Shown: positions 1 to 8,855 of the stretch, in pieces
Position numbering within the stretch: the first letter of the stretch is position 1
Layout of the letters: every line of letters starts with the position of its first letter
Virus record (IMG/VR): IMGVR_UViG_2851955134_000005
Source of the DNA: a virus
Lineage: Duplodnaviria > Heunggongvirae > Uroviricota > Caudoviricetes
Reading direction: 5' to 3' (one strand)
Length of the DNA stretch: 46,544 bases
Program-made: the position numbers and the translations under genes
The notes under the pieces: generated by a model
Told to the model about the DNA's origin: nothing
The model's input: only the letters and a program-made list of their open reading frames with translations
The model's database searches: none

Positions 1-276
1 TTACCGACTGCGGCCTGAGTTTTTTAAATGGCGGAAAATCGTGTTGAGGCCAACGCCCATAATGCGGGCGGTTGCCCGGCATCCAACGCCATTCATGGCC
101 ATATCAATGATTTTCTGGTGCGTACCGGGTTGAGAAGCGGTGTAAGTGAACTGCAGTTGCCATGTTTTACGGCAGTGAGAGCAGAGATAGCGCTGATGTC
201 CGGCAGTGCTTTTGCCGTTACGCACCACCCCGTCAGTAGCTGAACAGGAGGGACAGCTGATAGAAACAGAAGCCAC
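1..276 (-). CDS. insA: IS1 InsA transposition regulator (91 aa)
   Basis: Translation [39 protein letters not shown]... is the canonical IS1 InsA with its zinc-finger CxxC motifs. Confidence 0.9.
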
Positions 277-331: not shown

Positions 332-1274
332 TTCAAATCAATTCGATAATGAAGATGCAATCAAAGATAAATTAGATAATAGAGGTTCAATCAAAGGTAA
401 ATTAAATAATATATATGGTAAATCTATTGATTATGCAGCGCTGCGTCATCGGGATATAATTATTGCAAAAATAGATTTGTTTATTCAAAGAATCACTCAT
501 AATTTATGGCATGCACGTAAAAAAAATGTGTTTTTAATTGAGCAAATAACTAATCTCAAAGAGTGGGTTAATAAGTATATTGCAGATTGCACTGATGAGG
601 AATTAAACGATCGTGACTTTATTGCATCAGTTGTTGACCGGGCTATTTTTCATTTCGCGGTTAATAGTATATGTAATACTGAGGGTAATAAAGATGCAAC
701 GCCCATAGAACGATATACTTTTGATGTAGAAACCAAGAATGGCCTTCCCTCCACGGTTCAGCTATTTTATGAGGAATCTAAAGATAATGAACCTTTAGCG
801 AATATACATTTGCAAGCAATAGGTTCTGGTTTTTTAACGTTTGTTAATGCATGTCAGAAATATGATGACAACAGCTTAAAATTATTCGCTTCGCTGTTGA
901 TTTCACTTTCATACTCTAGTGCCTACACAGATTTAGCAGGAGCAGAAAAAGTGAATATTAATGATCATAATGGGAACTATCTGACAGCTCAGTTTGAAGA
1001 GTTATCTCAACGTGATATGAAGAAGTACCTGGGAGAAATGAAGCGTCTGGCAGATGGGGGAGAAATGAATTTTGATGGCTATCTGGATAAGATGTCACAT
1101 CTGGTGAATGAAGGAACGCTCGCCCCTGATATTTTAAGCAAAATGCGAGATGCTGCACCGAAATTAATTGACTTTGCTAAGTCGTTTGACCCAAACTCAA
1201 AGGAAAAGATTAAAATATATACAGGTACTTCTAAATTAATTTATGATTTATTCGGGGTTAAATCGGAGAAATAA
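332..1274 (+). pseudogene. IS1-truncated ORF of unknown function (3' portion of an AT-rich gene)
   Basis: Frame is open from the IS1 junction with no Met for over 200 codons; AT-rich; strong terminator follows. Confidence 0.45.
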
Positions 1275-1312
1275 TATGTGAAGTTCTTCGATGGTATGAA
1301 AGGTATTACATA

Positions 1313-1346
1313 AAAGAACCCAATGCTTATTGGGTTCTTTTTTCTC
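1313..1346 (+). terminator. rho-independent terminator after the truncated ORF
   Basis: Hairpin AAGAACCCAA-tgcttat-TGGGTTCTT followed by a T-run. Confidence 0.6.
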
Positions 1347-1634
1347 TATCAGTGCTATTAGCAGGGAGAGATATCACCGGAGTTTAATGTGTGATTTTTA
1401 TTTATCGTCGAATCTGTATTGTTTATCATTGCTTTTCACAACGCTAACATCTAATAAGATTAGATCTTCACTTCGTGAGAGCTTCATGCCTTGAGAGGAT
1501 CTCATTTTTCTTTTGCAATGAGACAGGCGCTTCCTGTTGTTATGGTATAGTACCCCGTTATTGAGCCTCCTGAACAGTGATGCTGAATAACATAACTCCA
1601 TGATATATCGATAAAATAATCTCTACATTTGAAA

Positions 1635-1757
1635 ATGCACGGTAATTCTGAAATGCAAAAAATCAACCAAACCAGCGCAATGCCTGAAAAAACTGACGTT
1701 CACTGGAGTGGTCGGTTTAGCGTTGCACCAATGCTCGATAGGATGTACCGTTTTTGA
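1635..1757 (+). pseudogene. dusA: displaced original 5' end of dusA (first 35 codons, then out-of-frame stop) at attL
   Basis: Encodes [35 protein letters not shown] then RMYRF-stop; homologous to the dusA 5' end at 45131-45233. Confidence 0.8.
1731..1738 (+). other. attL crossover region candidate (ATGCTCGA, last shared bases before homology breaks)
   Basis: Identity between the two dusA 5' copies ends at ATGCTCGA here and at 45226-45233. Confidence 0.45.
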
Positions 1758-1992
1758 AAAACAACTAGTTATACACTTTGTGGGAGCCTATTGGGAACCT
1801 GTTATTCTTAGAAAGCATCATTTGCTCATCACTTCAATTGACCATGATTAAAGCCAGCTATAAACTTGACAAACAAGGTAACTAGTTGCTTAGGCCTAAG
1901 TGGGCACACCATAAGAAGCTCATGTTGGTGATGAAGCAACCCATGAAGTATCGAGAATAATTACAAAGTTCACTATCTTTGAGGTTTCTTAT

Positions 1993-2565
1993 ATGTTTTG
2001 CGAAGAAAAAGTAGCTCAAATGGCTGCATACCTACTTCTTAAGCGAGGTGGGCGCATGGCATATCTGAAATTGATGAAGCTGCTCTATCTGTCTAACCGC
2101 AAGTCGATTTTGAAGCATGGCAGGATGATCGGCGAAGATAGCCTTTACTCTATGAAATTTGGTCCAGTCATGTCGAATACGCTGAACTTGATTCGTGGTA
2201 AGGCTGAAGGTATTGGTGACTACTGGTACAACCTGATAGAGACGAACGGGCATGATGTGTTGTTGCGTTCAGATCCGAGGGAAATGGATGCAGACGAGGT
2301 CTTTGATGAGTTGAGCCGTGCAGATATCCGGATTTTAGATGAAATCTATTCTCTGTATGGGCATATGAACCGATTTGATCTCGCAAACATGACGCATTTA
2401 GAAAGCGTTTGTCCAGAGTGGCACAATCCTGGCAATTCTCGTAAGCCTATAGACCTGAAAGAAATGCTGATCAGTGAGGGTAAAAGCGAGGATGAGGCTA
2501 ATCGTATAATTGGCAAAATGGAAGAATCTCAGAAACTTAAGGAATTTTCTTTGCAATTATCATGA
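1993..2565 (+). CDS. Panacea (DUF4065)-like domain protein, putative PanA/SocA-type antitoxin
   Basis: 190 aa; motif KLMKLLYL...FGPV resembles the DUF4065 core KLQKLLYY...GPV; RBS GAGG 8 nt upstream; stop overlaps next start (ATGA). Confidence 0.55.
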   Translation: MFCEEKVAQMAAYLLLKRGGRMAYLKLMKLLYLSNRKSILKHGRMIGEDSLYSMKFGPVMSNTLNLIRGKAEGIGDYWYNLIETNGHDVLLRSDPREMDADEVFDELSRADIRILDEIYSLYGHMNRFDLANMTHLESVCPEWHNPGNSRKPIDLKEMLISEGKSEDEANRIIGKMEESQKLKEFSLQLS

Positions 2566-2981
2566 CGGATTATCAGCCATACAGGAAAGGAACTGTGCTT
2601 GCCCCAACTGGGCCATGCAATCATCTTCATGTGATTTGTAATGATCCTGTTTATTACCCCGTTAACGATTGTTATTGTGTTTTAGTTGTTAATATTTCTA
2701 GTATCAAGGATGGTGTCCCCCACGATCCGTCTTGCGTCTTGAATTCTGGTGATCATCGCTTTATCAAGCATCCAAGTTATGTTGTTTACGCTGAAGCTAT
2801 AATTTGGCGAGTGGATAACATGGTTAGAAAGCAGCGATCGGGTGAGATTTCCGTTCATGATGATATGCCAGAAGCTACATTCAATAGAATTCTGGACGGT
2901 TTTGATATATCTGATGAAGTTACGCCAAAGAACCTTAAATTTAAAAATAAATATTGCGTATCATCTATTGATGATGAGTAA
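2562..2981 (+). CDS. hypothetical 139-aa Cys/His-rich protein, translationally coupled to the Panacea-like gene; candidate toxin/effector
   Basis: ATGA overlap with upstream stop; no recognisable family by eye. Confidence 0.5.
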   Translation: MTDYQPYRKGTVLAPTGPCNHLHVICNDPVYYPVNDCYCVLVVNISSIKDGVPHDPSCVLNSGDHRFIKHPSYVVYAEAIIWRVDNMVRKQRSGEISVHDDMPEATFNRILDGFDISDEVTPKNLKFKNKYCVSSIDDE

Positions 2982-3020
2982 ACAACAGGAATTGTTTCGG
3001 TATAGCTTCTGGAGTTTTCT

Positions 3021-3194
3021 ATGGAAGATCAAAAAGCAACCAAGCCACAGGTTAAGTTCGACACAATGAAAGCATTCGCAGGTATGGGTGCTGCTGTTGA
3101 AGTTCTGATGAAGGCTGCTCCTAATGCGTTCACTCACGCTACTGTCTCTGGTAAAGAGCAGCAGGGTAAGCTTCGTCGTCGCAAAGCAGCATGA
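3021..3194 (+). CDS. small hypothetical protein (57 aa, below ORF-track cutoff)
   Basis: ATG at 3021 preceded by GGAG; translation MEDQKATKPQVKFDTMKAFAGMGAAVEVLMKAAPNAFTHATVSGKEQQGKLRRRKAA; terminator directly downstream. Confidence 0.3.
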   Translation: MEDQKATKPQVKFDTMKAFAGMGAAVEVLMKAAPNAFTHATVSGKEQQGKLRRRKAA

Positions 3195-3212
3195 TCATAG
3201 CTGGTGCTTTTT

Positions 3213-3240
3213 GAAAACCCGCCTTTAGGCGGGTTTTTTC
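3213..3240. terminator. bidirectional rho-independent terminator
   Basis: A-run, CCCGCC-ttta-GGCGGG, T-run; sits between convergent genes ending at 3194 and 3242. Confidence 0.7.
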
Positions 3241-3241
3241 T

Positions 3242-3523
3242 TTAGTGATGTTCTTTGCCCTTCTGTTTGCCTGTTCTGACCTGTTCCCACTCGATACGTC
3301 CTTCTTCTCGTCTTTTGTCTATGTATTCCGCAAGATCCTGAATATTGATGCAACGTTTTGCTTTTTGTGATGTACCGATGCGATATGTAGGTACAGGCAA
3401 CTTACAAGCGTTTGCTTTTGCTTCTGCTGTGGCTGGACTCATACCAAAGTATTTTTGACTAACTGCTGAGAGTTCAATGTTTGGGGTATTGAATTCAGCC
3501 ATCAGTAAAAACAAGGTGTTCAT
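3242..3523 (-). CDS. small DNA-binding protein, PrtN/AlpA-like; probable excisionase or regulator
   Basis: 93 aa; last gene of the leftward early operon, next to the att-proximal cargo. Confidence 0.5.
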   Translation of the reverse strand: MNTLFLLMAEFNTPNIELSAVSQKYFGMSPATAEAKANACKLPVPTYRIGTSQKAKRCINIQDLAEYIDKRREEGRIEWEQVRTGKQKGKEHH

Positions 3524-3559
3524 AATTTACTCCATCAAAACCGGCTGCACCCGGGAAAA

Positions 3560-4132
3560 TCATAATTCTGTGCTGGTGGCAGGAATTAATTTCTGCCAGA
3601 TAGCGGAAACATATTTTGCCTGATGACGGGCATCAGCCAGGGCGTTGTGCCGTTCGCCATCGAAAGGCATGTCCATTTTGGGGTCGAATCCGATGGAACG
3701 CCCAAGCGTAACGATCGTGCGTACATCGTGGTCATTCCAGTACGCCCACGGGCAGATTTGTCCTGCTCGCTCGTAAGCTCCACGTAAAATTACGTTGTCG
3801 AAGGTGGCCCCGTTACCCCAGACTTTTAAATATTTCGTATTGGCTGCGTGCCGGTTAATGAAATGATTTAGTTCTGAGAGAGCATCGCTGATCGACAAAG
3901 TATCATCAATACAGATTGCAGCTCGTGCTTCAGGGCTTTGTTTCAACCACCACAGGATGGTATCGCCGTCAGGTGTAGCTCCTTGCCCCATAGCACTTTC
4001 CAGGCTAACAACCGTATAGAATTCTTGTCCGATGTCTCCGGTTTCTGGAGTGAAGAACACCGCGCCAATGGAAACGATCGGTGCATCCTTATTTTTCCCC
4101 ATCGTCTCAAGGTCGATCATTAAGTTATTCAT
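3560..4132 (-). CDS. DEDD-family 3'-5' exonuclease
   Basis: N-terminal MIDLETMG acidic motif and C-terminal H...ALADA motif typical of DnaQ-like exonucleases. Confidence 0.7.
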   Translation of the reverse strand: MNNLMIDLETMGKNKDAPIVSIGAVFFTPETGDIGQEFYTVVSLESAMGQGATPDGDTILWWLKQSPEARAAICIDDTLSISDALSELNHFINRHAANTKYLKVWGNGATFDNVILRGAYERAGQICPWAYWNDHDVRTIVTLGRSIGFDPKMDMPFDGERHNALADARHQAKYVSAIWQKLIPATSTEL

Positions 4133-8351: not shown

Positions 8352-8855
8352 ATGGACAAATTTGATAGAAGTGCACAAAGGCAGTTGTTACAAATACTGT
8401 ATGATGCTCATCCTTATGAAATTTCTGATGATGCGTTGCAGTCTGTTCGTGACGCATTTGGAGATGATAATGTCCTAATTTCGAACTTAATTTATCTCGA
8501 AGAACATGGCTTGATTAAGAATGCTCTTGATTATTACTTGGATGGCATAAATATAAATATTCCTGAATTAAGAATTACTAAAGATGGAATTGATTTCATT
8601 CGTGATGATGGAGGTCTTAAAGCTATTCTTGGGATTATGACAATAAGATTGCATGATGAGACTCTCTGTGAACTTGAACGTATCATCAATAGTTCTACTT
8701 CTGCCACGACTGAAGATAAGAAGAAATTACTTTCTCAGCTTCGAACGCTTCCTGCCGACGCCATAAAACAGCTGACGATTCGATTACTTGGTCAGGGGCT
8801 TGACCATCTGCCGGACGTATTTCACGTAATTCAAAAAGCCCTCCATTCTCTGTAA
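8352..8855 (+). CDS. hypothetical 167-aa protein, AT-rich moron beside the immunity region
   Basis: Coherent helical-looking translation; low GC versus flanks; own terminator at 9034-9058; convergent with cI. Confidence 0.5.
   Translation: MDKFDRSAQRQLLQILYDAHPYEISDDALQSVRDAFGDDNVLISNLIYLEEHGLIKNALDYYLDGININIPELRITKDGIDFIRDDGGLKAILGIMTIRLHDETLCELERIINSSTSATTEDKKKLLSQLRTLPADAIKQLTIRLLGQGLDHLPDVFHVIQKALHSL

Follow-up and report, generated by a model that had tools for sequence, protein, structure and literature searches.

The panA–panT locus

The stretch analyzed here (the window, 46,544 nucleotides; IMG/VR record IMGVR_UViG_2851955134_000005) corresponds to positions 2635877–2682420 of the Escherichia coli AR_0085 chromosome (NZ_CP029741.1), with 0 mismatches over the 46,544 bases. 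It holds a complete-looking lambdoid prophage of ~43 kb integrated in dusA. This report concerns a pair of overlapping genes near the attL end of that prophage, both on the plus strand: panA (gene 1, 1993–2565), which was identified from the list of open reading frames (ORFs) and a PF13274 match and encodes a putative Panacea-domain antitoxin of 190 amino acids (aa), and panT (gene 2, 2562–2981), whose 139-aa product is assigned, by a fold model and homology, to the MazF/PemK-fold toxins of cluster T6. An earlier interpretation, made from the letters alone (the sequence-only reading), had described a two-gene cassette at this place, and both ORFs and the ATGA overlap are present. The junction reads TCATGACGG, in which the panT ATG (2562–2564) and the panA TGA (2563–2565) share bases (ATGA, 2562–2565).

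Comparison with the phage Lys8385Vzw gave ratios of nonsynonymous to synonymous substitution rates (dN/dS) of 0.12 for gene 1 and 0 for gene 2, and both genes are under purifying selection. Because of these low ratios and the large families of homologues, neither ORF is judged to be a chance ORF. RefSeq, using the Prokaryotic Genome Annotation Pipeline (PGAP), places the panT start at GTG 2595, preceded by AGGAAAGG, giving a protein of 128 aa (WP_014640052.1). The 11 panT residues before this GTG are conserved across genera, with Pro-6 at 90% or more and Gly-10 invariant in our alignment A1, and in other lineages panT likewise begins at a −4 or −1 overlap with panA. The 139-aa form starting at ATG 2562 is therefore preferred, and the RefSeq start is probably placed 33 nt too far downstream. 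The 90%-identity protein cluster for the locus (541 members) mixes PanA (190 aa) with PanT (139 or 128 aa), which looks like an artifact, and cluster sizes for the locus are therefore unreliable.

A Shine-Dalgarno sequence, GAGG (1981–1984, plus strand), can be read 8 nt 5’ of the panA ATG, and AGG or GAGG at that distance is the only upstream feature common to divergent panA loci. No separate Shine-Dalgarno sequence precedes the panT ATG, and translation of PanT is therefore probably coupled to that of PanA through the ATGA overlap. A consensus scan gave one weak sigma-70-like promoter candidate, TTGACC-17-TAAACT (1838–1866, plus strand; 9 of 12 matches). This assignment is tentative: such sites are no commoner in the region than in shuffled sequence, and the candidate is not conserved in other lineages.

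PanA is a Panacea-domain protein

The sequence-only reading had called gene 1 Panacea-like and proposed a search against PF13274 as a check. The search matched gene 1 to PF13274 (SocA_Panacea) with E 1.8e-18 and 67.9 bits, against a gathering cut-off of 25.7, and residues 27–137 aligned with profile positions 1–109 of 113. The core pattern on which that reading had relied was also found, as gene 1 holds YLKLMKLLYLSN and KFGPVMS, and RefSeq already names the product “Panacea domain-containing protein”. The NCBIfam SocA equivalog model was not matched by gene 1 (13.5 bits, cut-off 190). An AlphaFold model computed with 39 homologues is confident throughout (predicted local distance difference test score, pLDDT, 93.3) and ordered to residue 189, with a Panacea core followed by C-terminal helices at 155–161 and 166–189. 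The model resembles an antitoxin chain from the DarTG complex, and also the Lamassu protein LmuC.

PanT has a predicted MazF-type fold and a different set of conserved residues

Gene 2 was said to be Cys/His-rich and to belong to no recognizable family. Its composition agrees with the first statement (6 Cys and 6 His, 8.6% of residues), but most of these residues are not conserved. Searches with gene 2 gave no match in Pfam, NCBIfam or PADLOC, and its PHROG match was the unnamed phrog_19071 only. Pfam searches with 22 and with 67 family members returned noise (ICMT, DapC, and PemK_toxin once with E 0.11), and comparison of the PanT family profile with all PDB sequences gave nothing meaningful.

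Structure prediction, which the sequence-only reading had also suggested for this unrecognized gene, was more informative. The AlphaFold model of gene 2, computed with 22 homologues, is confident (pLDDT 89.5; predicted template modeling score 0.83), and its structural neighbors are exclusively MazF/Kid/CcdB/CptN-type toxins, the best being MazF/Kid and not CcdB. Because of this confident model and its neighbors, gene 2 is assigned the MazF/PemK/CcdB toxin fold, modeled as a MazF/CcdB-type β-barrel with a C-terminal helix. The view that gene 2 could not be placed is thus superseded by the predicted fold and, as described below, by accession-level links to cluster T6.

An exhaustive profile search showed that the PanT family is large: it recovered the representatives of 2,673 clusters (50% identity) at E ≤0.001 and of 887 at E ≤1e-10. 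Among 67 diverse members, His-21, Cys-58 and Gly-113 are invariant; Met-1, Leu-22, Asp-55, Gly-63, His-65, Phe-67, Ser-72, Tyr-76 and Ser-117 are near-invariant; and positions 46–47 are usually Ser or Thr. The remaining Cys and His residues vary, and Cys-26, present in the enterobacterial branch, is Met in Pseudomonas. A zinc-finger reading of the Cys/His-rich composition was considered and rejected, with only His-21, Cys-58 and His-65 (and Asp-55) conserved family-wide.

The comparison with MazF, Kid (PemK) and EndoA (PF02452) reveals several differences. PanT has no sequence-profile similarity to these toxins, and its antitoxin is a Panacea protein whereas theirs are MazE and Kis. Where MazF has a long substrate-binding loop between β1 and β2 (E. 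coli MazF sequence and structure), the PanT model has a tight hairpin at residues 16–19; it also has a long ordered loop (48–71), in which Asp-55, Cys-58 and His-65 sit, and an extra C-terminal helix (122–131). PanT conserves His/Cys/His/Asp, whereas the catalytic residues of E. coli MazF are Arg-29 and Thr-52. Judged by secondary-structure register only, His-21 on strand 2 and Ser-46/Ser-47 at the end of strand 3 fall roughly at the places of Arg-29 and Thr-52.

PanT belongs to toxin cluster T6

Toxins paired with Panacea antitoxins were catalogued by Kurata et al. (PNAS 2022, PMC8832971), and Dataset S1 of that paper annotates cluster T6 as “EndoA/PemK/MazF-family RNAses” by HHpred prediction. 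Members of T6 in that dataset are found in Proteus, Pluralibacter, Pantoea, a Yersiniaceae isolate, Salinivibrio, Pseudomonas and other bacteria, and in most of these pairs the genes overlap (−4 or −1; PMC8832971). Two of our gene 2 homologues are themselves T6 entries, namely WP_025672779.1 from Salinivibrio socompensis (P0264, 49% identical to gene 2) and WP_101821906.1 from Chimaeribacter coloradensis (P0211, 57% identical), the latter with taxid 2060068, which is the taxid given in the dataset for “Yersiniaceae bacterium 2016Iso4”. Gene 1 shares 48% identity with the Pluralibacter PanA WP_048253753.1, whose accession is adjacent to that of the T6-listed toxin WP_048253752.1. The gene downstream of panA in Pseudomonas fluorescens encodes a protein 37% identical to gene 2 (E 2e-30), and the 90% cluster of this PanA includes the T6-listed P. 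reinekei PanA WP_092267218.1, which starts with MIFSEQKVAQ, the ten residues that Kurata et al. restored to P. moraviensis PanA (PMC8832971). By these sequence relationships, gene 2 is assigned to PanT cluster T6. The RefSeq accessions of the pair, WP_000458583.1 and WP_014640052.1, were not found in the accessible supplements of the two Panacea papers, nor were T6 accessions found in the accessible NetFlax supplements.

The experimentally studied T6 pair is that of P. moraviensis (PanA WP_083354365.1, PanT WP_083201923.1), which was established as a true toxin–antitoxin pair, forms a complex in pull-downs and has a toxin that specifically blocks protein synthesis, as judged by 35S-methionine incorporation, like the MazF control (PMC8832971). 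The pair in the window has the same antitoxin-first order and overlapping genes. Neither PanA carries an extra N-terminal domain, and the N-termini read MFCEEKVAQ here and MIFSEQKVAQ there; both toxins are of ~133–139 aa, have no Pfam or CDD match and show a MazF-like fold. The identity to the Pseudomonas-type PanT is only ~37%, measured on the P. fluorescens protein and not on the P. moraviensis toxin. The Pseudomonas pair is scored “NotPhage” in the dataset, whereas the pair in the window is prophage cargo. The sequence-only reading had presented gene 2 as an uncharacterized toxin: it is best read as a toxin, but a T6 member, that of P. moraviensis, has already been validated.

The Panacea domain is also found in the SocA–SocB system of Caulobacter, from which the Pfam name SocA_Panacea derives. 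SocA is a ClpXP adaptor for the degradation of SocB (a type VI system), whereas the T6 pair forms a stable complex typical of type II.

The pair is conserved as a unit in differing contexts

Related loci were searched with a 22-sequence PanT alignment. Of the fetched loci, 67 include DNA 5’ of panT, and every one of these has panA immediately before panT on the same strand, which supports a conserved, overlapping, antitoxin-first pair; the other 23 start at panT, where the contig or prophage call was cut. The genes overlap by 4 or 1 nt (−4 or −1) or are separated by a 5-nt gap. The two-gene architecture was seen in E. coli, Shewanella and Pseudomonas, which agrees with the definition used by Kurata et al. 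(a partner within 100 nt in at least two species), and both genes share contigs in Serratia, Brenneria, Rahnella and Edwardsiella.

The surroundings of the pair differ considerably. In Shewanella it lies in an island with a P4-type integrase, and the homologue there is 53% identical for the toxin and 42% for the antitoxin. One E. coli pair belongs to an element that also codes for a protein of 2,791 aa containing LPD and MuF domains. The P. fluorescens pair (CP025542.1; locus L009, 5674–6711) is chromosomal; a reverse-transcriptase gene (RVT_1, 345 aa) with small ORFs beside it lies ~700 bp away and may represent a retron-like defense neighbor. On two phage contigs of 45–52 kb (L077, 3432–4432; L086, 3432–4453), a T6 pair 71–76% identical to ours sits inside a tail-gene module, in the order immunoglobulin-domain tail protein, DUF6246 protein, pair and lipoprotein, followed in L077 by an 828-aa protein. 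Because the linkage holds across these contexts, panA and panT move as a unit.

The pair occupies a variable cargo slot of dusA prophages

On the left, the slot is bounded by a displaced piece of the dusA 5’ end (1635–1757, plus strand), which marks the attL end and was delimited by the RefSeq partial tRNA-dihydrouridine synthase (1635–1739) and by alignment. Similarity to the 5’ end of intact dusA (45131 onward) is well conserved up to ~1757 and absent beyond, so the prophage begins at ~1757, ~235 bp before panA. The phage-side boundary is a PrtN-family Xis-like gene (3242–3523, minus strand; PF11112, E 3.1e-23), whose orthologue in phage mEp460 is annotated as an excisionase. The placement originally described, between attL and the Xis-like gene and on the strand opposite to the early-left genes, is thus borne out.

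Related dusA prophages and phage mEp460 have in common the xis gene and a 57-aa gene, and the cargo upstream of these differs. In mEp460, the O157:H7 strain E32511 and strain PMV-1, the slot holds a single gene for a 177-aa protein (WP_000956557.1), at 2784–3317 in L011 (mEp460 gp23), 2781–3314 in L092 and 2784–3317 in L093. Of 5,426 complete E. coli genomes, 358 have this gene, among them genomes of O157:H7 and O145:H28, and its product has no Pfam or PADLOC match.

E. coli APEC O78 (L094, NC_020163.1, 2410–3454) carries a different PanAT pair in the same slot, from the dusA 5’ fragment to the PrtN-like xis gene. The antitoxin there, WP_000287252.1, is the validated “E. coli STEC O31” PanA, and the toxin, WP_000019185.1, belongs to cluster T3; the T3 toxin of E. 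coli STEC O31 is membrane-targeting (Kurata et al. 2022, PMC8832971). Both cassettes consist of a Panacea antitoxin followed by a toxin in the identical slot, but identity between the PanA proteins is only 20%, and the two toxins are unrelated, the T3 toxin not being of MazF fold. The T3 pair was found in 79 of the 5,426 genomes; it is scored “NotPhage” in the Kurata dataset, yet lies in a prophage slot beside xis in APEC O78. The T6 pair itself has a guanine–cytosine (GC) content of 41%, compared with 50% for the whole window. On this low GC content and the variable slot, the T6 pair is prophage cargo, as had been supposed from its att-proximal position.

Proposed mechanism and alternative explanations

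The explanation we favor, and consider probable, is that the pair is a type II PanAT toxin–antitoxin module, which a dusA-integrated lambdoid prophage carries as cargo at its attL end. In this model, panA and panT would be transcribed rightward, away from the phage early-left genes. By analogy with the pull-downs of the P. moraviensis T6 pair, PanA would bind PanT directly and keep it inactive; free PanT, a predicted divergent MazF/PemK-fold protein, would arrest growth by blocking protein synthesis, as does its P. moraviensis homologue. Cleavage of RNA by PanT is assumed from the modeled fold, and no report of RNA cleavage or other RNase biochemistry for any T6 member was found in the literature consulted. 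His-21, Asp-55, Cys-58 and His-65, together with Ser/Thr at 46–47, are probably the active-site residues, where canonical MazF uses an Arg/Thr pair. The role in the lysogen would most likely be prophage stabilization or abortive infection of other phages.

Several observations weigh against this explanation, some of them concerning catalysis. PF02452 (MazF/PemK) was not matched by gene 2 and was matched by 1 of the 67 family members (E 0.11). An hhalign comparison of the PanT family with an alignment of MazF, Kid and EndoA gave a probability of 0.1–0.3% (<1%), using a four-sequence profile in which two sequences, E. coli MazF and Kid, were checked against the PDB. No Arg is conserved among the 67 members, so the catalytic Arg of MazF has no obvious PanT counterpart, and with His-21, Cys-58 and Gly-113 as the invariant residues instead, MazF-type catalysis by PanT is putative. 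Outside catalysis, the region upstream of panA has no inverted or direct repeat usable as an operator and no promoter conserved across lineages, and PADLOC-DB v2 gave no match for either protein at E ≤1. Two phage-borne T1 Panacea pairs, from E. coli MOD1_EC5558 and Salmonella phage Emek, were scored “not Toxic” (PMC8832971), so toxicity cannot be assumed for every Panacea pair.

The observations on catalysis would fit a PanT that has retained the MazF/CcdB fold without being a ribonuclease of MazF type. The residues His-21, Asp-55, Cys-58 and His-65 could then form a metal site or a Cys-His-Asp-type catalytic center with other chemistry or another target; PanT might, for example, poison a protein as CcdB does, or modify the translation apparatus enzymatically. 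The invariance of His-21, Cys-58 and Gly-113, the near-invariance of Asp-55, His-65, Ser-72 and Tyr-76, the lack of a conserved Arg matching MazF Arg-29 and the empty profile comparison are all in its favor, as is the fact that T6 RNase activity is an HHpred prediction and not a measurement. However, the best structural matches are the MazF/Kid ribonucleases and not CcdB, and the P. moraviensis homologue specifically inhibits protein synthesis, as MazF does. Two histidines are a common acid–base pair in metal-independent ribonucleases, and the residue swap in PanT is therefore compatible with RNase activity. We regard a non-RNase PanT as unlikely.

A pair that is inactive as a toxin–antitoxin system here, being a non-toxic or domesticated phage module with a function in, for example, regulation or counter-defense, is less likely still and in our estimate improbable. 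It would account for the “not Toxic” phage-borne pairs, for the lack of a recognizable autoregulatory operator and for the occurrence of the same pair inside a tail-gene module in other phages. The “not Toxic” pairs come, however, from a different toxin cluster (T1), and the sole T6 member tested was toxic and neutralized. In addition, in the comparison with Shewanella the toxin is conserved no less than the antitoxin, and the putative catalytic residues are invariant, as they would be in an active enzyme.

A further alternative concerns only the role of the type II module: it may serve chiefly in abortive-infection defense, with Panacea sensing an incoming phage and releasing PanT, and not as an addiction module. 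Ernits et al. 2023 proposed Panacea as a sensor domain, which is in keeping with this alternative, and so are the resemblance of the PanA model to the DarTG antitoxin chain and LmuC, the variable slot beside attL, in which sister prophages carry other cassettes (one of them a second PanAT type), and the RVT_1 gene adjoining the P. fluorescens pair, which could be another defense gene. By contrast, neither protein matches any PADLOC model, the att-adjacent position fits stabilization equally well, and no paper was found that tested this pair or any T6 pair against phages. A chiefly defensive role is possible, though somewhat short of probable, and the earlier suggestion that gene 2 is a defense effector is plausible.

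The favored reading, a prophage-borne type II PanAT cargo module, describes a cassette that is real but largely ordinary, with a toxin group already catalogued in 2022. Two small points are new here: the same slot holds a different, validated PanAT pair in other E. coli strains, and the conserved T6 residues (His-21, Cys-58, His-65, Asp-55) differ from the Arg/Thr pair of MazF. The alternation of cassettes and the non-canonical residues are noteworthy, but would not surprise a specialist. The main gain is in annotation, as the name PanT (T6, MazF-fold) can be given to a “hypothetical protein” that occurs with its partner in 208 of the 5,426 E. coli genomes and also in many prophages of Enterobacterales. 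The alternating slot (T6 pair, T3 pair or 177-aa gene) also offers a natural setting in which superinfection defense can be set against prophage retention. With ~2,700 clusters at 50% identity, the T6 family is large; Pfam has no model for it, and its conserved residues are His/Cys/His/Asp and not the catalytic residues of MazF. A bolder combination, in which T6 PanT proteins are MazF-fold enzymes with a His/Cys/His(/Asp) center replacing Arg/Thr and the slot cassettes are phage-sensing abortive-infection modules, strikes us as unlikely; if it is true, the T6 center could be a metal site or thiol-based, with a chemistry or target perhaps unlike the mRNA cleavage assumed by analogy with MazF.

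Neighboring genes and other features of the window

At the opposite end of the prophage from the pair, the integrase gene (43945–45042, minus strand) abuts intact dusA (45131–46168) in the RefSeq annotation. The free phage Lys8385Vzw is 98% identical over the region and has its integrase gene immediately upstream of the pair, so the 455-bp gap between integrase and pair in this phage must contain attP.

Downstream of panT lies the 57-aa gene (3021–3194, plus strand; phrog_2741), which has no assigned function and is possibly co-transcribed with the pair. It was considered as a third toxin–antitoxin component and rejected: it occurs in mEp460 and in hundreds of E. coli prophages that have no pair, and is therefore phage backbone, outside the toxin–antitoxin pair. 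A terminator scan found a GC-rich hairpin at 3213–3238 (both strands; 11-bp stem with 6 GC pairs) with T tracts on either side, which is likely to be the terminator for both the rightward unit and the leftward xis transcript. An Rfam scan of 1250–3600 gave no family at threshold, and the sub-threshold matches fall on terminator hairpins.

Outside the prophage, an IS1 element (insA end, 1–276, minus strand) lies directly beside a DUF2713 gene (318–1274), whose ORF in the window begins with TTG; in other strains this gene adjoins zur, with no IS1. Within the prophage, a 167-aa gene (8352–8855, plus strand) lies between yfdP and the gene for a LexA-family (CI-like) repressor, opposite in direction to its neighbors. 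Neither Pfam nor PADLOC matched it; lying in a classic lambdoid cargo position, it may be a further cargo gene. The tail fiber gene (39460–41865) is a single uninterrupted ORF of 801 aa, for which RefSeq gives two pseudogene fragments (39508–39874 and 40831–41865); the pseudogene annotation is probably an artifact and not a sign of a broken gene.

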